A stretch of 64,000 bases of DNA from an uncultured Candidatus Saccharibacteria bacterium. GTDB taxonomy: Bacteria; Patescibacteriota; Minisyncoccia; Phycocordibacterales; UBA9973. The translations under genes were made by a program, and so were the position numbers. The notes under the pieces were generated by a model. It did not search any database. It was not told where the DNA came from and saw nothing but the letters and a program-made list of their open reading frames with translations. Below are positions 51,893 to 64,000 of this stretch, one piece after another. The stretch covers positions 6,338 through 70,337 of the forward strand of contig CAZSWF010000002.1 of assembly GCA_964610995.1 (NCBI GenBank), given 5' to 3'. Positions within the stretch are counted from its first letter, which is position 1; the number at the start of each line of letters is the position of its first letter.

Positions 51893-52186
51893 CTACACTT
51901 TTGCTATTACTTCTTGTGCAAGCAATGCACGCTTTGCACGAGGACCGCCGCGGTTGTACTCTCCGACGCTTCCATCAGAACGAACCACGCGGTGACACGG
52001 CACAGTTGGATCGTAGTTACCTTTCATCACTGTCCCCACAGCACGAGCAGCGTTAGCATTCCCAGCTTTCTTTGCAACTTCTGCATAGGTCATCGTCTTG
52101 CCTTTTGGGATCTGACGCACAACATCACGCACCTTATCTGCAAATGATTTCACGTGCGCATTATTTGACGATCGGGTGTGGGACAT
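51893..52186 (-). CDS. MGMT-family protein (O6-alkylguanine-DNA alkyltransferase DNA-binding domain)
   Basis: TYAEVAKKAGNANAARAVGTVMKGN...PCHRVV contains the PCHRV active-site motif. Confidence 0.8.
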   Translation of the reverse strand: MSHTRSSNNAHVKSFADKVRDVVRQIPKGKTMTYAEVAKKAGNANAARAVGTVMKGNYDPTVPCHRVVRSDGSVGEYNRGGPRAKRALLAQEVIAKV

Positions 52187-52460
52187 TGAGCACTTCTTTG
52201 AAAAATGTCACGATCACAGTATTTTCACCTTCGGTGATGAAGTCGGTGTTGAAGGTACAGTTATAAGCGACAGTTTGGCGATACCCAAATGCAACTTTGG
52301 TAAAACTCAGGTCATCGATCGAAAGGTTGCAGCCTTCTTGGAGTGTGGACTGACTTTCGTACACTTTGTTGTAGATCAGCTGACGAGCATCTGCAGGCTC
52401 AAACCATGGACACCATGCAACAATAATAAGTCCTACAACTATAAGTGCGAAAAATGCTTT
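52161..52460 (-). CDS. hypothetical small membrane-anchored protein
   Basis: Probable start MKAFFALIVVGLIIV. About 100 aa. Confidence 0.35.
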   Translation of the reverse strand, partial: KAFFALIVVGLIIVAWCPWFEPADARQLIYNKVYESQSTLQEGCNLSIDDLSFTKVAFGYRQTVAYNCTFNTDFITEGENTVIVTFFKEVLNVPHPIVK

Positions 52461-52641
52461 CATATAAGTACTAGTATAGCGCACTAGTAGAAATGGCACC
52501 AAGTTTCGTGTGGACTCCAGTATGGTTTTTGTAAACCAGATAGCTAAGGAATTGGAGTATCTGGCTTGGGTACTAAAAGGAGATTATGAGAAAAGTGTCT
52601 AAATTACTGTCGGTACTGTCTTTAGTGTCTAGATATTAAAA

Positions 52642-52665
52642 AGCCCCTTCAAGAATGAGGGGGCT
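52642..52665 (-). terminator. rho-independent terminator
   Basis: AGCCCCTT-caagaatg-AGGGGGCT. On the minus strand it is followed by TTTTTAATAT, downstream of the 52689-54539 gene. Confidence 0.65.
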
Positions 52666-52688
52666 GTATAAAGAACTTCTTCTAATTA

Positions 52689-54539
52689 CTATTTACCAAA
52701 GTTGGTAATTCGACGTCCTAAGTTGTTTACTGGATTTTCAAGTATGGCAGGCTTTGCCCATACACCAGAAATCAATCCTGTATTTGCGGTCTTGGACTTC
52801 GTGATTCTTTGTTTTAGGAAAAATGGTTCAACCTCTACGTTGTAAAAACTAGCGGCCGCACTATCCATTTCGGAAAGCTTCCTATAAGCAAGAAGAACAT
52901 GTTTAGTGCTCCCGATGGAAATAGCTGACCGAAGCATTGCTGCTAATATCGCAAGAGATTTTATATTGCCCTGATCTAACCATTCACATAAAGATTTGTA
53001 TTCCCCATAGTGAAGCAGTTTTGCGGCCTTTCTCTCTTCTGCGATTCTTAATTTTTCAACCTCAGTTGTCGCTGTTTTAAAAGTTCCAAGTAGGTTAAGT
53101 TTTTTCTGTAAGAGACTAAGCCGATTCAAATCCTTTTCCTCTGTAGGTACAAATTCTGAATAGAACTCGAGTGATCTTACTGTCAATTCACATTCCTTTG
53201 TCTGTAGGGCTACTAAATCCTTTTGAATCTTTTCAACTGCCCGAAGAATGGTGTCGTGATACTCTAGAAAAAGTATCCTTTCTAGCACAACCTTAACAGC
53301 GTATTCATTTTTAGTTTTCATCGCACGACAAAGGAGACTGGAAAGGACGTTAGCAGATGTTGTTTTTGCAACACTGTGTTTAATCATTGCTTCTATCTCA
53401 GTATCGGAAGAAAAAGATCCTTGCTTGAATAAGCCATAAAGTACATCACGGTCGAAGGGTTTAATCGTATATGCCTCTTTACAGGACTTGATAAGGGCAG
53501 GATGCCGATAATCTATCGTAAGCGCCTTTCTACAATCCTCAAGCCTTTTTGCCAACCAGATCGGTCTGTCTTTAAACAGCATAATTTCAAGATTTGGAGG
53601 AACTTCAAAACCACTAATCGCGGCCATTCTATTGAATAGGACTTTTGAATTAACCTTTTGTACTAACCACCACAAAATGAGAGATTCTGTCTGAGAATTA
53701 TTTTTCCCTTGGCAATACAAGCACATTGGTACAAAAGTTGTTAAAGAGCCTCTCTCTACTAACCTCTGTACATCATTGGCTATAATTTTTTTATACCGCT
53801 TCTCGAATGTCTCAGCTGTATCAACAGCCCAGGCAACATCTTCCCGAACAAACGGTATTTGAAATATATCCTTTTGACCCTCATTTTCTAAAGAAGAAAA
53901 ACAGGTTGAAAATATAATTTCAGCTATTTCTCTTTCTCCTAGGTACAAGTAGTACCAGTAAAATGAGAGTAAAAGGTTTCTGCACCCGTATTCAAGGAGT
54001 TTTGATGTAAGGGCAACAAGACAATCGGTTCTCTTTTCATCTTTGGTTCTTAAACAAAAACGATACATTGCATCCCATGCTACCCACTGCCAGCTACTTT
54101 TGCGAGCTTTAACCGCAATTACTTTTTCAACAAATTGCAGTTGCTGGTCATTAATGGGCCACATTCTTTTATGAGCAAGAAGGAATACAATTGTTGATTC
54201 CACACCTTTGTCTAATACATATAGAGTGATCATATCTTCATAGGTGGAAAAGAAATAGGGTTCATTTTCAATTTTATTGAAGAAATCACTTTCTTTATAA
54301 GCATGAATTTCTTTAGCCCTTTTTGTATTTATCTTGCATCCTGTTAAATCTTCAATGAGGGATAAGCGCTCAGCCCCCATTAAATCACGGTGATAACACA
54401 AAACTATAAATGCTTCCGTGTTTTTACCTTCTTCGATAAGCGATTTTGCTTTGGAAATAATTCCTTGTTCATCCGATGTACCGATTTCTAAATCGGACAT
54501 CCTGTTGGATTGATTGGCGAAACGTGTCTTTTTCTCCAT
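52689..54539 (-). CDS. large hypothetical protein (616 aa), AT-rich island gene
   Basis: Long uninterrupted ORF of low GC, predicted helical, with no recognisable catalytic motif. It is the last gene of a three-gene minus-strand operon. Confidence 0.5.
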   Translation of the reverse strand: MEKKTRFANQSNRMSDLEIGTSDEQGIISKAKSLIEEGKNTEAFIVLCYHRDLMGAERLSLIEDLTGCKINTKRAKEIHAYKESDFFNKIENEPYFFSTYEDMITLYVLDKGVESTIVFLLAHKRMWPINDQQLQFVEKVIAVKARKSSWQWVAWDAMYRFCLRTKDEKRTDCLVALTSKLLEYGCRNLLLSFYWYYLYLGEREIAEIIFSTCFSSLENEGQKDIFQIPFVREDVAWAVDTAETFEKRYKKIIANDVQRLVERGSLTTFVPMCLYCQGKNNSQTESLILWWLVQKVNSKVLFNRMAAISGFEVPPNLEIMLFKDRPIWLAKRLEDCRKALTIDYRHPALIKSCKEAYTIKPFDRDVLYGLFKQGSFSSDTEIEAMIKHSVAKTTSANVLSSLLCRAMKTKNEYAVKVVLERILFLEYHDTILRAVEKIQKDLVALQTKECELTVRSLEFYSEFVPTEEKDLNRLSLLQKKLNLLGTFKTATTEVEKLRIAEERKAAKLLHYGEYKSLCEWLDQGNIKSLAILAAMLRSAISIGSTKHVLLAYRKLSEMDSAAASFYNVEVEPFFLKQRITKSKTANTGLISGVWAKPAILENPVNNLGRRITNFGK

Positions 54540-54617
54540 GTTTTTATTTTTTTGTAAGTGAACAATTTTATATCGACTTTATACTACATTGCATATTTAA
54601 TATGTCAATGTCATCAG

Positions 54618-55088
54618 TTACTGAACTTTGCTTCTAAACACTTCCAGGAGAAAAGGTATTTTATCTTTTAGAATGTTTATATTATTACCTATGTCGTTTA
54701 CCTTATCACTCATACCTGAAAGAATTGTAGTAGTTTCTTTTTGTTTTACTTCCAAGACTTCAATTTTATCCCCATGAGAATAGACTAAATAGCCCATCCA
54801 AACTAAAGCTGCGATTGCCGCCACAATAAGGCTAACAAAAATATTACTTAACAGATTTTCAAAACCAAATGCATCTCTTAGTCTCAAACGAAAAGGTTTC
54901 TTTGTCTTTCTACTTTTTTGAGGCTTTTTTTCCTCCTCAAAATTTGAAGAATCAGTTGTATCAACAGTATTAAATTTCTTTTCAGTTGTTTCTAAACCTG
55001 AAGATTTTAATAAAAAACGCTTATATGCATTTTTCTCATAAGGAGTTTTTCCTACATGTTCAGATCTAATGTATCTACTATTTTTCAT
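54618..55088 (-). CDS. hypothetical single-pass membrane protein
   Basis: 156 aa with a basic N-terminus (KPQKSRKTKKPFRLRLR), one TM segment (IFVSLIVAAIAALVWMGYLVY) and a coiled C-terminus. Confidence 0.45.
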   Translation of the reverse strand: MKNSRYIRSEHVGKTPYEKNAYKRFLLKSSGLETTEKKFNTVDTTDSSNFEEEKKPQKSRKTKKPFRLRLRDAFGFENLLSNIFVSLIVAAIAALVWMGYLVYSHGDKIEVLEVKQKETTTILSGMSDKVNDIGNNINILKDKIPFLLEVFRSKVQ

Positions 55089-55776
55089 TTTCGTTAAAAA
55101 TCCAAGGATAATACTTATTATCTAAGTATGAAATAGCATCTTTTATAAAAGCTTCTGTATCGCAGTCTCTTAGATCGTAGAAACTTGGATCATAGTAATA
55201 TTGGAAATCCAAATTTGCTTCAAACTTACCATCTTTTATTTCAGTAAAATTATAAATATAATTTTTGAAATCGTTTACATTTTTTCTATAAAGAGATTCT
55301 TTACTCTCTTCTTTTGATGAGAATGTTAAGTTTATGTTCTGAGCTTTATTTATTTTTGAGTTTGTAATTAATGGTATAACTGCTTTGAGTTTTTCTATAT
55401 TTGAAACTTCATGTCCAAAAATAACACCTATTCTGCTAATATTAACTAGCTCAAATTTTCTAAAAATGTGCTCTTTTAAATAAGGCAATACCTTATCGTT
55501 TAGGAATTTTATTTTTGTATCAAAATTACCTTCGACTTTCAATTTTATAATTAAATCATCTGTATTGATTCTAATATATTCATCTGTTTCAGTATTATAT
55601 AAGATTCTTTCTCGAAGATTGGTATCTCGAACCTCTGGGAACATTTCTGCTCCAAATGGCGACTCTTCGTCGTACAAAATATGGTCTATAATCCTTCCAG
55701 CCTCGTCTCTCAAACGAAAAGATCTCGAATGTCGTATACCTAGAATAACTGAAGTTATGTCCTTTTTTAGATTCAT
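55078..55776 (-). CDS. hypothetical protein (232 aa)
   Basis: AT-rich ORF whose stop overlaps the next gene's start by about 10 bp, with no motif I can assign. Confidence 0.45.
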   Translation of the reverse strand: MNLKKDITSVILGIRHSRSFRLRDEAGRIIDHILYDEESPFGAEMFPEVRDTNLRERILYNTETDEYIRINTDDLIIKLKVEGNFDTKIKFLNDKVLPYLKEHIFRKFELVNISRIGVIFGHEVSNIEKLKAVIPLITNSKINKAQNINLTFSSKEESKESLYRKNVNDFKNYIYNFTEIKDGKFEANLDFQYYYDPSFYDLRDCDTEAFIKDAISYLDNKYYPWIFNENEK

Positions 55777-56046
55777 AGTTAGAGCTTAATATATCATTAG
55801 TATCAAAAATGTCCATGGGGAAGCTTAAGTTGCAATGGTTCCAATTCCCCGAAGGCATTACGTTCGATGGAAAGGATTATGGAACCGTACAAACAGCAGG
55901 TGTTTTCAAGACAAAAGAGGCATTTCTGCCCCTTCAGTCTTCTACGGTGGACTTGGGAGTTCAATTTTGGAACAGATTTGCTGTGGAGTGTCAATATCTT
56001 GTCCATATTATGCGTGAATACAATGCTGACTTGAAAAGATAAAAAA

Positions 56047-56520
56047 CTACCTCCACTGCGTATCACTATTCTTTATGTCTCTCAAGGTCTTCCAGCTCAT
56101 CTCTTCAACACCGCCCGCACGGTCCACGAAAAAAATATAGAGGTTCAATTTATCCATCACATCAAATGGCATTTTTCTCAAGACCATCTTCTTAAATGAA
56201 ATTGGAAAAGCTACACCGTATTTATAGCCGTATTTGTACCCACGCTTGCCGTTGCGGTGCATTCTTGTAATGATTTGTCCTACGGCTGAATTGAAACAGC
56301 TACTCATACTACCAGCGGGACTTTTTACGATAATTGATGGGTCGCCCTTTGCCTCAATCAACCAATAGCGAGAAAAGTTATCGTTTCTGACTTTGATGTC
56401 TACACCCTGTTCCCAGAGTTCGGCATTTCGCAGTGAAGTACTCCATCCTTTTCTCTTCAAATACGCAACCACGTTTTTTTGCACAAAGCTCTCTGTAATT
56501 ATTTCTCGTGTAGCCTTCAT
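56047..56520 (-). CDS. putative PD-(D/E)xK nuclease-fold protein
   Basis: GVDIKV...YWLIEAKG has the spacing of a D...ExK restriction-endonuclease-like core. It is 17 bp downstream of the RT gene on the same strand. Confidence 0.4.
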   Translation of the reverse strand: MKATREIITESFVQKNVVAYLKRKGWSTSLRNAELWEQGVDIKVRNDNFSRYWLIEAKGDPSIIVKSPAGSMSSCFNSAVGQIITRMHRNGKRGYKYGYKYGVAFPISFKKMVLRKMPFDVMDKLNLYIFFVDRAGGVEEMSWKTLRDIKNSDTQWR

Positions 56521-56536: not shown

Positions 56537-57655
56537 TTAGGACATACTCTTCACCAGCTCTTTGACTTCGCTTGTGATTTTCTTGGCATTGCCATGACTT
56601 AATAATCCAAGATAGGACTGCACGGTCTCCTCTTTTGCACCCATCTCCGCGATACGCTTGTACATGCGACGCTTGGTCACGGTCCGCACCGCACGATGGT
56701 CTGGAAAGTGGACCCATCCAAGGAAATCAACGCCCGAGGCGAGCGTCTTTATGAAAACTTTATCTGGATGTAATAAAAGTTTTAACTTTTCTTTAAGAAA
56801 AATTGATATTTTCGGGAGAATACCCTCAAGTACCGCTTTGTCATCGGACAGGAATACGAAATCATCGGCATAGCGGATGTAGTGCTTCGCTTTGAGCGTA
56901 TGCTTCACGAACTGGTCAAACTCGTTCATATAGATATTGACCAAGAGTTGTGAGGTAAGGTTGCCAAGCGGCAGTCCTCTCCCTTTTTGAGTTGAATGAA
57001 AACTGCCAACAATTTCAGCCAAGAGTTCTACGATGTCCTTGTCTGCGATAGAACTTTTAATGATGTTCAACAGGATGTCGTGGTCCACCGATGCAAAGAA
57101 CTTCCGTATGTCGCATTTCAAAACCCAGACAGTGCGTGTGTCATTCTTTGAGACCTTGTAGGACAGAGTACGAAACCGCTGCATTGCCTTGTGGGTGCCT
57201 TTGTTTTGTCTGCAAGAAAATGAGTCAGCAATAAATGTGTGGTCAAAAAATGGATAGAGCTGACGATACAGTGCGTGGTGCAACAATCGGTCCGCAACGG
57301 ACGCCTTGTGAATGTTTCGCGGTTTCGGGTCAGAAATGTTGAACGCTTCGTACGATGAGTGTCGGTATGTTTTCGCTACAAGCGTGCGGTGCAGAGCGAT
57401 GACGTTGCCCATCAGATTTCTTTCAAATAGCAAAACATCTTTTCTTGATTTTTTACCCGACACAAACTCTTGCCACGCAAGGAGGAGGTTTTCGAGAGAA
57501 ATGATATGCTCGTAGCTATGAATAAACCGAGTCCGAGCAATACAATGACCATCACCCCCCCCCGACAATTTTGCCCGTGCTTCAAAAGCTGAAAACTGTC
57601 TATATTCATTGGTATGGATATTATCACGAACTCCCCAAGACACACCGCCACTCAC
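56537..57655 (-). CDS. diversity-generating retroelement reverse transcriptase
   Basis: RT motifs include IRYADDFVFL (YADD box). LPLGNLTSQLLVNIYMNEFD is the DGR-type [ILV]GxxxSQ motif, replacing the QGxxxSP of group II introns. A 9-nt G-run lies in the 5' region, and the start is uncertain. Confidence 0.85.
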   Translation of the reverse strand: MSGGVSWGVRDNIHTNEYRQFSAFEARAKLSGGGDGHCIARTRFIHSYEHIISLENLLLAWQEFVSGKKSRKDVLLFERNLMGNVIALHRTLVAKTYRHSSYEAFNISDPKPRNIHKASVADRLLHHALYRQLYPFFDHTFIADSFSCRQNKGTHKAMQRFRTLSYKVSKNDTRTVWVLKCDIRKFFASVDHDILLNIIKSSIADKDIVELLAEIVGSFHSTQKGRGLPLGNLTSQLLVNIYMNEFDQFVKHTLKAKHYIRYADDFVFLSDDKAVLEGILPKISIFLKEKLKLLLHPDKVFIKTLASGVDFLGWVHFPDHRAVRTVTKRRMYKRIAEMGAKEETVQSYLGLLSHGNAKKITSEVKELVKSMS

Positions 57656-57918
57656 TCGGAGTACGCATTGATACGCTGTTCATAGAAATAATGGAGTCAA
57701 TCGCCGTGGCAAGTTTTCTCGCTCGTATTGAAAAACAACCCTATGTACGGATTGCTATACGAAAAATTGATACGCTCAAAGTACTCATGATGGTGCTTTG
57801 GGAAACGAAGTCGCTCGATGACAAGAAGTACATCGCACTGTCGGTACAAATCGAAGAAATCGGGAAGATGCTCGGCGGCTGGAACGGGCAACTCACAAAA
57901 CAAAACTCTCCCAACTAA
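57571..57918 (+). CDS. DGR accessory variability determinant (Avd, four-helix-bundle protein)
   Basis: LPKTHRHSLGVRIDTLFIEIMESIAVASF...IALSVQIEEIGKMLGGW parallels Bordetella phage Avd (PRKHGVAREMF...AEVGRILGSWIA). It starts at TTG 57571 or a later ATG, on the strand opposite to the RT and TR. Confidence 0.65.
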   Translation: MPVLQKLKTVYIHWYGYYHELPKTHRHSLGVRIDTLFIEIMESIAVASFLARIEKQPYVRIAIRKIDTLKVLMMVLWETKSLDDKKYIALSVQIEEIGKMLGGWNGQLTKQNSPN

Positions 57919-57945
57919 TAAAAGTTGAGAGAGAAATGAAGAGAG

Positions 57946-58069
57946 TTGCCGAGAGAGCAGCAGGGTTGTTGCCATTGAAGTCATTGCTCAACCAGTTGTT
58001 GCTCCAGTTCCACTGACCATCGTTCCAATACAGGTAACGGACATAGAGGTTGTCGTCAGAGTTGCGGTT
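57946..58069 (-). repeat. DGR template repeat (TR)
   Basis: 124-bp repeat. Versus the copy at 58434-58557, every one of the 19 mismatches falls where this copy has A on the minus strand, so this is the adenine-bearing template. The first 20 bp are identical in both copies (IMH-like GC-rich end). Confidence 0.85.
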
Positions 58070-58428
58070 ATGTATGGCGTGCCATCCATTCCACCATCCT
58101 TTGAATACTCTCGGGATTGTATCGTATCTGTGATAGTAATCACCCAGCACGTCATACCAAGTATCTTCAATTTTTTGAAGTTTCTACATACACCACCCTA
58201 TCTGAAGCCGTGACCGCAGATATTCTCGATGTATGGATACTAGCTTCGGCAGTCGGAAGCCGTAACCGCCGTCATATTCGCCAGAAGCCGTTCTCATGGT
58301 ATCACAAAAAAATAACCCCTATATGAAAAATATAGGGGTGAAGATTTGTAAAACCTTCAAAACTTTTTTATCGCGAACAAAGGACAAAGGGTCACAGCTC
58401 ATAGAGCACAGTGTTCGAGGGTATAGTA

Positions 58429-59019
58429 CTAACTTGCCGAGAGAGCAGCAGGGTAGTGGCCATAGAAGGCATAGCTCAACCAGCGGTTGCTCCAGAGCCA
58501 CTGACCACCGTCCCAATACAGGCAACGGACACAGAGGCGGCCGTCAGAGTCGCGGTAGATGGTCCCCCAGAAGAAAATATATTTTCCTTTCCATTCTTCA
58601 GGAATGGCTTTGGGGTTCGCCAATAGGTAGTCCAATACATTTGCGTTCAGTACTTTCTTGCCTTTTAATTCTTCACGCAGTTTGTTGCCTTCGATGCTAC
58701 CGTTCTTCTGTTTCTTGGAGAGATAGAGTTCAACTTTTGAAGCGTCAAACTTAATGTTGCCGTTCTTTTGGTGTTCCTCTACTTTCCAACAACTTGGAAT
58801 GAATGGTGCTGCATCGCAGTCAATAACGTGTTCAATGCCTTTTATTTCGTGGGTGCCGCGTAGCACACCGAGGACCAATTTCATCAGATTTTCATCTTTT
58901 GAAAAATCGTCCATGTTTTTTGGTTCCCAGCCTACTTTTGCGGCTGAAAGGGTAACTTCCCCCATGAGGGTACAGCTAAACTCATTTGATTTTGCCATTG
59001 TTTTAGGTTTGTGACACAT
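58429..59019 (-). CDS. DGR target protein with C-terminal variable (C-type-lectin-like) region
   Basis: 196-aa ORF whose last roughly 40 codons are the VR, with no obvious signal peptide. The start may be the internal MAKSNEF. Confidence 0.75.
   Translation of the reverse strand: MCHKPKTMAKSNEFSCTLMGEVTLSAAKVGWEPKNMDDFSKDENLMKLVLGVLRGTHEIKGIEHVIDCDAAPFIPSCWKVEEHQKNGNIKFDASKVELYLSKKQKNGSIEGNKLREELKGKKVLNANVLDYLLANPKAIPEEWKGKYIFFWGTIYRDSDGRLCVRCLYWDGGQWLWSNRWLSYAFYGHYPAALSAS
58434..58557 (-). repeat. DGR variable repeat (VR) at the 3' end of the target gene
   Basis: This is the counterpart of the TR. TR Asn/Tyr/Asp codons (AAC, TAC, GAC) correspond to R/C/L/Y/H/G/A codons here: TR-encoded NLYVRYLYWNDGQWNWSNNWLSNDFNGNNPAALSA becomes RLCVRCLYWDGGQWLWSNRWLSYAFYGHYPAALSA. 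It ends 2 nt before the stop codon. Confidence 0.85.
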
Positions 59020-62161: not shown

Positions 62162-64000
62162 TTATATAGTGGTTAAAGTTTTAATCGTTTCAAAAAGTTC
62201 TCTTTGACGCTCTTGTAGATGAGCATCAAAGATGACTTTATACTCAAAATCCTTGTTTATTTTTTGAAAATCAAGGAAACCAAGTTCTTTGGCGTACACG
62301 TCGTTGAAGAGTGATGTGACGGTTCCGTCATAGCGTTTCTTATTTGCCTCGTATTCCGTCTTTTCGGACCCTGATTTCACTTCCAGCACCAAGAACCTTC
62401 CTTTGTCAGTTTCTATGAGGAAGTCTGGGAAGTATTTTGATATACGTTGTTCTGTGGGGTTCCAGTACTCAACATAGAAATCGTTGTGAGCATCAGTGGT
62501 GACACCTCCAGTGAAGTAGACATCCTTAATAGTTTCGTTGGTTGTCAGAAATTGGCGGAATTGTCGGAAAAGGTCCCGTTCGTCACTACTGTCGAAGTTG
62601 TAGGGGTTGATATGAAAACCGAGGCGACTTGTTGCTCCGTCCGTCTCTTCTTTTTCCTTGAAGATGACGAGTGCTTTTTTACCTTCCTCCTTGCTCATTT
62701 TGAAGGGATACTCCTTGGTGAGCTCGATTTCTTCCTCTGTTGTTGTCTCGGTCTCCGTATACTGATAAACAGTTTCAAGAACAGTTTGAATGATGAATGG
62801 GAGGAACCCCACACTCGTATTCACTTTATCTACTAACTCACTCCTAGATAATCCGATATTTTCCGATAATTTACTTACCGAAAGGCATGGCAAATGGGTA
62901 TAGCGGTTTATGAGCTCAACGATTTCATAGTAGGTATATGAATTGGTCTCTTTGATTTTCTTTGAGCCGAGCGTGTCGTGCTTGAGGATTGCCTTGCCAG
63001 AACCATCTATGACAAGCTCCGAGCCCAAGAGATAGTGCTCGTACTTTTCGGCCTTGTACTTCTTAATATCAATCTTAATGTCGCTCGTGTCTCGGGCTTG
63101 GGTTGACACGATGTCTCGGATGAGCTTTTTGACAGTGATAGTCTTTTTCTTTTCAACCTTAATTTCAAACTCAAAGCTCTCTTGTTCTTGGTTGTTGATG
63201 TCTTGGATACTTGAGGCAAAGTTGTTCTTGAGTTCTTTGTCGAGGACCTTGTAGTTCTCTTTGGAGAGGAAGATATGGGCTCGTGTTGAATTATCTCCAA
63301 TGGACCGCATGCAGCGTGTGGACGCTTGGAGCACGAAGATTGAGCTCGATGGCTTGCGGTACAGTGCACACGCGACCAGCGAGCGACAGTTCCACCCTTC
63401 CGTACCCTTACCAACAAGAAGCACGAACTGCTTGGTGCTATCTATCGTATCGAGCGTTCGAAACTCATCCTTGTTATCTTCGGCTTCTGTATGGTACTCA
63501 AGGACCTTATCGAGCGATATATTCATCTCCGCAAGCACTCGCTCAATGCGTGGTTTGAGTTCGTTTCGCAAATTATCAATACTTGGAGCATAGAACGCCA
63601 TTTTGGGCAGACGACCTTCTAGGCGGTTTTCTCCGTACTCGGACCAGAATGTCCCAAGGACTTCTTCAATGAAAACCTCTGAACGAACCTCTCCGAAATC
63701 CAGTATCTTTACCTGTTTCAGAATACCTTTCTCTATGCCTTGTTTGAGCCCGAAATGGTACACAACGTCATCTATCATCCTGTTGTTGATATACGGCGTT
63801 CCTGTGAGGTTTACGACCCCTACGAGAGGTGTATTGCCGTGCAAATAGTCAATCGTCTGACGCGTCTTCTTCAAAGCACCTTCGAGATTGACTCCGTACG
63901 AGTGATGGGCTTCATCAACAAATATGACGAGGTTGTTGAGCTCACGGATTGCTCGGAGGCGTGCGTTCTCTACCTCACGCTTGGCAAGCTCACTCTTATC
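62162..64000 (-). CDS. DEAH-box SF2 helicase with C-terminal PD-(D/E)xK nuclease domain (type III restriction Res-like), 5' end beyond window
   Basis: The frame stays open upstream of the ORF-track TTG start. My translation of 63875-64000 gives ...LNNLVIFVDEAHHSYG (DEAH motif II), followed by NLTGTPY (motif III) and helicase C-domain motifs. The C-terminal PDFLIETDKGRFLVLEVKSG is a PD...ExK core. Confidence 0.6.
   Translation of the reverse strand, partial: DKSELAKREVENARLRAIRELNNLVIFVDEAHHSYGVNLEGALKKTRQTIDYLHGNTPLVGVVNLTGTPYINNRMIDDVVYHFGLKQGIEKGILKQVKILDFGEVRSEVFIEEVLGTFWSEYGENRLEGRLPKMAFYAPSIDNLRNELKPRIERVLAEMNISLDKVLEYHTEAEDNKDEFRTLDTIDSTKQFVLLVGKGTEGWNCRSLVACALYRKPSSSIFVLQASTRCMRSIGDNSTRAHIFLSKENYKVLDKELKNNFASSIQDINNQEQESFEFEIKVEKKKTITVKKLIRDIVSTQARDTSDIKIDIKKYKAEKYEHYLLGSELVIDGSGKAILKHDTLGSKKIKETNSYTYYEIVELINRYTHLPCLSVSKLSENIGLSRSELVDKVNTSVGFLPFIIQTVLETVYQYTETETTTEEEIELTKEYPFKMSKEEGKKALVIFKEKEETDGATSRLGFHINPYNFDSSDERDLFRQFRQFLTTNETIKDVYFTGGVTTDAHNDFYVEYWNPTEQRISKYFPDFLIETDKGRFLVLEVKSGSEKTEYEANKKRYDGTVTSLFNDVYAKELGFLDFQKINKDFEYKVIFDAHLQERQRELFETIKTLTTI

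Follow-up and report, generated by a model that had tools for sequence, protein, structure and literature searches.

The window analyzed here, a stretch of 64,000 nucleotides (nt) from an uncultured Candidatus Saccharibacteria bacterium (assembly GCA_964610995.1, contig CAZSWF010000002.1, positions 6,338 to 70,337), contains three uncharacterized open reading frames (ORFs) at positions 52689 to 55776 that we call genes A, B, and C. The main finding of our analysis is that A and B form a strictly conserved two-gene cassette that is AT-rich, horizontally mobile, and without any curated family. In the window, this mobile cassette lies within a decayed element at a tRNA-Ala gene beside the independent gene C, and its genomic contexts lead us to propose, with moderate confidence, a role as a defense-associated accessory module. 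An earlier annotation made from the letters of the window alone (hereafter the original prediction) had instead grouped all three genes into a single operon and suggested it as a candidate novel accessory or defense module. It had located the three genes exactly:

55078-55776, minus strand: gene A, 232 amino acids (aa), first gene of the A+B cassette
54618-55088, minus strand: gene B, 156 aa with one transmembrane (TM) helix
52689-54539, minus strand: gene C, 616 aa, outside the A+B cassette

The anticipated stop/start overlap of A and B is present and measures 11 nt (55078-55088, with the B start lying over the A stop), whereas B and C, which had been described as equally tightly packed, are separated by 78 nt (54540-54617) that hold a conserved promoter-like leader. 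The genes are, as had also been noted, poor in GC compared to the core genes: A has a GC content of 28.2% (22% at third codon positions, GC3), B of 30.4% (GC3 21%), and C of 37.9% (GC3 34%), and the A-B-C block forms a GC trough relative to its flanks, with neighboring genes at 42-51% (GC3 41-52%) and the whole window at 45.3%.

No recognizable motif had been seen in the three proteins, and our searches agree with this view in that A, B, and C have no significant match in Pfam, PADLOC, NCBIfam, or PHROGs (v4). The PADLOC scan (PADLOC-DB v2.0.0) covered the window copies of all three and returned no match for A and only non-significant partial matches for B (best PDC-M33C, E = 0.015) and C (best REase_II, E = 0.0085). 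We also looked for homology to housekeeping or phage structural proteins, which the original prediction had named as evidence that would speak against it, and found no significant match of A, B, or C in PHROGs, Pfam, or NCBIfam and no tblastn match in 50,697 phage records. Neither the three proteins nor a 631-aa homolog of C described below (C631) carry a name in the sources that we checked. Pfam, NCBIfam, PADLOC v2, and PHROGs v4 contain no model for the A+B pair, and a full-text search of the literature, which was not exhaustive, found no described system of this architecture.

The association of A and B was surveyed across 69 loci (labeled with the prefix L, as are the other sequences used for comparison) that correspond to 42 non-redundant contexts and were found with peptide patterns from one alignment of A proteins (A1), as a second, more diverse alignment (A3) varied too much to derive patterns from it. 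Wherever a locus leaves enough space for both genes, the pair occurs (about 42 distinct contexts), and the gene after A in all retrieved contexts is an overlapping B homolog of about 150-170 aa as judged by tblastn and clustering. Distant members of the A family (22-28% identity) also precede an overlapping single-TM gene of 130-181 aa. This partner architecture, 130-181 aa with one TM helix at residue 67-88, is constant in 22 of the 22 loci examined in detail, and a B profile also finds those partners that belong to distant branches of A (E = 1e-5 to 3e-11). The GC content of the cassette is below that of its flanks in 30/30 loci with a mean difference of 9.6 points and stays at 24-35% across loci, with host flanks ranging from 30% to 58%. 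A small third gene overlaps the B stop by 4 nt at L009:1306-1806, L013:7144-7476 (= L043), and L014:7165-7458, where it encodes, respectively, a TM protein of 166 aa, a protein of 110 aa, and a winged-helix-like protein of 97 aa that has weak matches of the Csa3/SoFic type; since these genes share no common cluster at E <= 1e-6, the position after B appears to be variable.

Protein A is an acidic, soluble alpha+beta protein with an isoelectric point (pI) of 5.55 (family median 5.7). An exhaustive profile search recovered 413 family representatives clustered at 50% identity (272 with E <= 1e-10), which are almost all single-domain proteins of about 230 aa; close homologs share 44-77% identity. 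Going by record titles, the family spans several phyla and occurs in Syntrophaceae, Gammaproteobacteria, Bacilli, Bdellovibrionales, Saccharibacteria, and several other lineages of Patescibacteria. None of 62 diverse members has a Pfam or NCBIfam match, and across these members residues D190 and Q192 are invariant and G13, F20, G27, D31, F41, R115, G117, F152, I174, and P197 nearly so. An AlphaFold2 model based on a nine-sequence alignment has a mean predicted local distance difference test score (pLDDT) of 80.9 and a predicted template modeling score of 0.82 and consists of two beta-alpha-beta(n)-alpha repeats, for which Foldseek found nothing at E <= 1e-3 in the PDB and only uncharacterized proteins in BFVD. 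Sequence profiles of A supported no enzyme family. A glutamine synthetase / guanido-kinase fold (arginine kinase, McsB, GCL, PafA, and the GatB cradle) was considered and not adopted as the sequence lends it no support, and the only matches of the A1 and A3 profiles to the PDB, synthetic beta-trefoil repeats, were rejected as chance with a short hairpin motif counted three times. At L067:180-1898, residues 2-113 of an A homolog, its N-terminal half, run in frame into a RecG-like DEAD-box helicase (PF00270, PF00271, RecG_dom3_C), an arrangement that is probably a deletion remnant or an assembly chimera and not a functional fusion.

Protein B has one strong hydrophobic segment near residue 83, as expected for the single-TM protein that had been predicted, and we place the TM helix at about residues 83-101. 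Its N-terminal region (residues 1-75) is basic with a pI of 10.1 and conserved, accounting for 24 of the 31 positions with >=80% conservation, and is followed beyond the membrane segment by a coiled-coil-like C-terminal tail that is variable and poorly conserved. Counts of Lys/Arg flanking the TM helix favor an orientation with the N-terminus inside in most homologs.

The genomic neighborhoods of A+B elsewhere carry the case for a link to defense, because the cassette directly adjoins a restriction-modification (R-M) system in 19 of about 36 informative contexts (those with any flanking gene), and about ten kinds of R-M are involved. These neighbors are encoded on the same strand and usually lie immediately upstream, and 15 of the 15 same-strand upstream genes that end <=38 nt from A are R-M genes (spacing 0-38 nt). 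The following R-M genes, including restriction endonucleases (REases) and methyltransferases (MTases), were found beside A+B:

L006: EcoRI REase and MTase
L011, L012: NgoPII and C5-MTase
L015/52: C5-MTase and HinP1I
L027, L031, L033: C5-MTase, HinP1I, and Vsr
L017/56: Eco47II and C5-MTase
L037: N6-MTase and CfrBI
L010: N6-MTase and HNH
L014: MTase, REase_II (PADLOC), and MTase
L039, L040: 248-aa protein and N6-MTase
L046, L062: TaqI_C-type enzyme and 244-aa protein
L009: Type III Mod and Res, downstream of A+B
L008, L022, L051: MTase cut off by the contig end

Enrichment beside known defense genes, proposed earlier as a way to probe the locus, was checked and found for R-M genes: MTases account for 18 of the 164 genes within three genes of A+B vs none of the 95 genes further off in the same loci (Fisher p = 2e-4). 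Close relatives in a tree of A proteins adjoin different R-M types, meaning that the cassette recombines among R-M operons. A and B themselves have neither a helix-turn-helix controller domain nor a Vsr endonuclease domain, and in L027 a separate gene upstream of A encodes a true Vsr (PF03852, E = 5.6e-28), which has homologs at the same position in L031 and L033. Signs of mobility recur as well, with large serine recombinases accompanying A+B in L001, L002, L011, L012, L019, and L048 and a RepSA/G2P-type replication initiator in L011 and L019.

In the window, the cassette is found in a 3.4 kb region (52516-55946) that is the decayed remnant of a small large-serine-recombinase integrative element at the 3' end of tRNA-Ala and that holds A, B, and C, i.e., two unrelated cargoes in the form of A+B and C. 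An integrase remnant, attachment (att) junctions with a common core, and the tRNA target were all found, and the signals in and around the element are as follows:

55803-55952, plus strand: serine recombinase remnant, about 50 codons from the 3' end of the gene (sequence comparison)
55939-55957, minus strand: attL-type junction of CCCAAGTCCAC with CGTAGAAG, core GTCCAC at 55947-55952 (comparison with relatives)
52503-52520, minus strand: attR-type junction of CTGGAGTCCAC with ACGAAAC, core GTCCAC at 52510-52515 (comparison with relatives)
55788-55815, minus strand: promoter-like site upstream of A, TGGACA-16-TATATT with TG before the -10 (promoter scan)
54608-54581, minus strand: promoter-like element of C in the B-C gap, TTGACA-16-TAGTAT (promoter scan)
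52637-52665, minus strand: intrinsic-terminator-like hairpin and U-run 3' of C (folding)

The site upstream of A is a consensus match only, and such sites are no more numerous in the region than expected from shuffled sequence. Over residues 414-462 of the 470-aa enzyme, the recombinase remnant shares 58% identity with the intact serine recombinase of L001, a locus from another organism that represents the intact form of such an element and consists of the tRNA-Ala 3' end, the serine recombinase, small regulators, a 282-aa protein, A, and B. With its integrase truncated to about 50 codons, the window element is decayed and presumably no longer mobile. A closer comparison is offered by the related genome L074 (GCA_964432275.1), where the equivalent recombinase remnant measures 81 aa and where positions 49-181 are 89% identical to the 133 nt upstream of A (55820-55952).

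The attL-type junction separates the decayed element from a tandem island with a diversity-generating retroelement (DGR), a serine recombinase, and a Type III R-M system. Its element-side sequence is that found at the tRNA-Ala junction of L074, and its outer arm is only a degenerate tRNA-like end, as would be expected if the second island had integrated at the same site. The attR-type junction separates the element from the conserved core (orf100/113, MGMT-like, SIMPL, and PBP2), whose synteny with related genomes begins at 52466-52593. In the island-free relative L072, tRNA-Ala(UGC) lies directly upstream of orf100 and thus at the attR position, and in L074 and L001 it is found at attL. The bounds of the L074 element are GGTCCAC followed by CGTAGAAGACTG at the tRNA end and CTGGAGTCCAC followed by AAAGAAACTA before orf100. 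All these att junctions were visible only via related genomes, and generic repeat finding in the flanks gave nothing convincing. The original prediction had seen the genes at the edge of mobile DNA, and they are indeed uncharacterized genes in mobile DNA that borders the conserved core; it had also assigned them to the same island as the DGR, the integrase, and the Res-like gene, but those belong to the separate tandem island, and A, B, and C lie between att-type junctions of their own. Relative to L074, A+B (about 1.2 kb) replaces about 110 nt between the recombinase remnant and the promoter of C, and the cassette may have been either inserted here or lost in L074. On the core side, a 113-aa ORF (52161-52502, minus strand) is probably over-extended, given that its relatives start at ATGAAAGCA, which yields 100 aa, and that the extra 13 codons overlap the attR-type junction.

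Gene C is a genuine ORF, with a chance of about 1e-20 for 616 stop-free codons at local composition, and it ends, as had been recognized before, in a terminator: the hairpin at 52637-52665 has a folding energy of -17.5 kcal/mol (z = -3.05), and none of 200 shuffled sequences was as stable. On first sight C had appeared to be an orphan, as a word-indexed search returned only C itself, and this view was withdrawn when the synteny comparison gave a homolog with 26% identity. That homolog, C631 of L074 (L074:368-2263) and the only one detected, aligns end-to-end at E = 8e-53 in a pairwise comparison and sits at the same chromosomal position in a genome that has no A+B. The word-indexed search had missed this full-length homolog in the very same collection, which marks a sensitivity limit for fast-evolving proteins. 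Core DNA of L074 is about 80% identical to the window and the flanking non-coding DNA about 89%, compared to only 26% protein identity for C, and both termini of C and C631 are well conserved, including a C-terminal motif (SGVWxxPAILENPVNxLGRRIxNFxK) in the last ~30 residues. By these comparisons, C is a separate cargo gene that looks hypervariable between conserved ends and diverges extremely fast. Neither C alone nor a two-sequence profile of C and C631 matched the PDB, relatives of C were not found in phage, plasmid, or IMG/VR collections, and the two-sequence profile found nothing in viral contigs. The description of C as a large helical protein was not confirmed, because its predicted helicity comes only from a low-confidence single-sequence model (mostly helical, pLDDT 41.5).

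These data also bear on the idea that A, B, and C constitute one three-component candidate defense system, which we now regard as highly improbable. The three genes share the same strand and the same decayed element, all have lower GC than the surrounding genes, and we detected no terminator between B and C, so that read-through would be possible. Conserved synteny, which the original prediction had named as a way to judge its three-gene operon, speaks clearly against it: a homolog of C is found beside A+B in none of the 69 loci, and the C homolog of L074 occupies the same site without A+B. Likewise, the 400 nt that follow B in L001, the nearest relative of the window copy, are non-coding. The gap between B and C aligns with the sequence upstream of the 631-aa gene in L074, including a TTGACA…TATAA element and the leader AAAATTGTTCACTTACAAAAAAAT, which indicates that C has a conserved promoter-like region of its own, and its GC3 of 34% is set apart from the 21-22% of A and B. 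Synteny essentially refutes a system of three components. What endures of the proposed defense role concerns A+B and not the three-gene unit, and the same-strand R-M adjacency in about half of the informative contexts is much stronger evidence for it than the original prediction could draw on.

How might a defense-associated accessory module of this kind work? We suggest that the acidic, cytosolic A could dock on the basic cytoplasmic N-terminal region of B, a contact that is suggested by the gene overlap, the complementary charges (pI 5.55 vs 10.1), and the conservation of B in residues 1-75. A and B would then form a membrane-anchored complex that would most likely serve as a second-line, abortive-infection-like system complementing restriction, with A as a putative sensor or enzyme and B as a putative membrane effector or anchor. 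The window copy itself is not coupled to an R-M operon and is probably expressed from its own promoter-like site. Several points weigh against this interpretation. Among the window copies scanned with PADLOC, A+B shows no homology to any known defense protein, and collections of phages, plasmids, and IMG/VR sequences yielded no A. The taxonomic labels of the A family stem from bins of metagenome-assembled genomes, into which mobile DNA is easily mis-sorted. The figure of 50% for R-M adjacency may not hold family-wide because the loci were sampled via the peptide patterns of one subfamily, and the absence of MTases among the 95 more distant genes was scored with hidden Markov models built from genes near A+B that may have missed MTases of other families at a distance. 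Other contexts of A+B feature housekeeping genes (BipA, an aminotransferase, an amidohydrolase, an SPFH protein, a DD-carboxypeptidase, and MM-CoA mutase), and the window copy and its closest relative in L001 form an outlying branch without adjacent R-M; the nearest R-M system to A+B in the window is the Type III system of the neighboring island, whose Res gene ends about 6.4 kb upstream of A. The linkage to R-M could reflect co-carriage on mobile elements and not a common function.

This concern is the core of an explanation that we consider unlikely overall, in which A+B serves integrative elements as a module for maintenance or exclusion and R-M travels with it only as another common cargo of the same elements. 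It could take the form of a toxin-antitoxin or addiction pair, with B as membrane toxin and A as its neutralizer, or that of entry or superinfection exclusion. The overlap of the two genes is typical of toxin-antitoxin pairs, the cassette is always AT-rich foreign DNA, it travels on serine-recombinase/Rep elements with the integrase at their opposite end, and it has persisted in the decayed element of the window after loss of the integrase. Yet A would be large for an antitoxin (232 aa) and has no DNA-binding or known antitoxin domain, and B matches no known family of membrane toxins or holins; when we tested the pair for Type II toxin-antitoxin families and domains, no Pfam or NCBIfam domain was found in A or B, and only the overlapping layout fits. 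Gaps of 0-38 nt to about ten kinds of R-M and the swapping of R-M partners suggest coupling at the level of operons and not mere co-residence, and many copies of A+B lie among housekeeping genes without any recognizable element. Conversely, the cassette might be an accessory of R-M itself that tethers restriction to the membrane, regulates it, or controls the establishment of R-M in a new host, and we view this as quite improbable. The same-strand, near-zero spacing 3' of R-M operons in 15 loci fits such a role, the apparent work with unrelated REase and MTase families would imply a generic partner function, and the strongly basic N-terminal region of B could bind nucleic acid. However, about half of the contexts, including those of the window and L001, have no adjacent R-M, so the cassette functions, or at least persists, alone, and the known R-M accessories (C proteins and Vsr) are unrelated, with true Vsr encoded separately in L027, L031, and L033. 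We keep the defense-associated accessory module as the preferred reading of A+B. A more daring version of it, which we regard as doubtful, is that A+B is a widespread module against phages or plasmids that had so far escaped notice and acts as a generic second layer that plugs into any type of R-M operon, and that C, separately, is a hypervariable specificity or surface determinant shaped between its conserved termini by an arms race; A+B could then be, for example, an abortive-infection switch at the membrane that is triggered once restriction is overwhelmed or inhibited.

The second island lies upstream of the decayed element in tandem and comprises a gene that we call ORF D, the DGR, a 448-aa serine recombinase, and a ParB-like protein as well as, partly past the window end, a Type III-like R-M system (N6_N4 MTase of 563 aa and ResIII of 850 aa) and a Toprim primase-like gene. 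The ORF that runs off the window end (62162-64000) represents the C-terminal 611 aa of this 850-aa ResIII, and as ResIII is preceded by the 563-aa N6_N4 MTase, the neighboring island has a complete Type III-like R-M system (seen in full at L076:5744-9992), beyond which follow a DUF5659 gene and the Toprim primase-like gene. The DGR (56537-59019) encodes a reverse transcriptase (PF00078, E = 1.2e-24) that is probably 291 aa long with a start near 57412, and a bAvd-like ORF on the opposite strand (57571-57918) scores 39.4 bits, just below the cutoff of 40. Its template and variable repeats form a pair of 123 nt with 86% identity (57946-58068 and 58434-58556), and the variable repeat is located at the 3' end of a 196-aa target gene (58429-59019). 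ORF D (56047-56520, minus strand, 157 aa) lies between the DGR reverse transcriptase and the att junction and by eye resembles a PD-(D/E)xK nuclease core (GVDIKV…LIEAKG), although neither the libraries nor the PDB gave a match; it clusters with a single other protein, of 145 aa, and no homolog of ORF D was found beside A+B in the 69 loci. Contigs from three independent assemblies end no more than about 40 nt from the attL-type junction, and the contig ends of L070, L071, L074, and L076 (from this organism and a relative) lie near ~55915-55957. Breaks at this junction suggest strain-level heterogeneity in the occupancy of the tRNA-Ala site.

Should A+B prove to act in defense, its two genes would make up a compact system of about 1.2 kb without homology to any catalogued one that spans at least 413 clusters from Patescibacteria to Gammaproteobacteria (as per record titles of metagenome-assembled genomes) and is physically coupled to many unrelated R-M systems. 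It could then become a tractable model for membrane-associated partners that back up or extend restriction. Whatever its function, the pair is a clean candidate for family curation with a defined architecture, and the locus illustrates in detail how integrative elements line up in tandem and decay at a tRNA-Ala hotspot of a bacterium with a small genome.

Among known systems, the architecture of A+B appears, by analogy and without homology, to resemble combinations of a sensor with a membrane effector. The anticodon nucleases PrrC and RloC, which act in abortive infection, are single ABC-ATPase/nuclease proteins encoded inside Type I R-M loci. Like A+B, they are accessory genes within or against an R-M operon and are thought to act as a second line when restriction is bypassed, but they are tied to Type I systems, whereas A+B lacks any ATPase or nuclease signature, comprises a membrane protein, and is attached to many kinds of Type II and Type III systems. 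Two-component abortive-infection systems that pair a soluble sensor with a membrane effector, such as lambda RexAB and Kiwa KwaAB, share with A+B the layout of two genes on mobile DNA that encode one cytosolic and one membrane protein, without sequence similarity and with different gene sizes and order. RexB and KwaA are multi-pass membrane proteins, unlike B with its single pass and external coiled-coil-like tail. A bitopic membrane protein with its N-terminus inside and its C-terminus outside is known from the class III holin T of phage T4, which is paired with the antiholins RI and RIII. As with T, the cytoplasmic N-terminus of B could be bound by a soluble regulator, but the two are not homologous (PHROGs gave only non-significant coiled-coil-type matches), and the external part of B (about 55 aa) is much smaller than the periplasmic domain of T. 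Finally, the window element shares its recombinase remnant, GTCCAC att cores, tRNA-Ala target, and tandem occupancy with tRNA-targeting large-serine-recombinase elements, from which it differs in being decayed to the point that only about 50 codons of its integrase are left.

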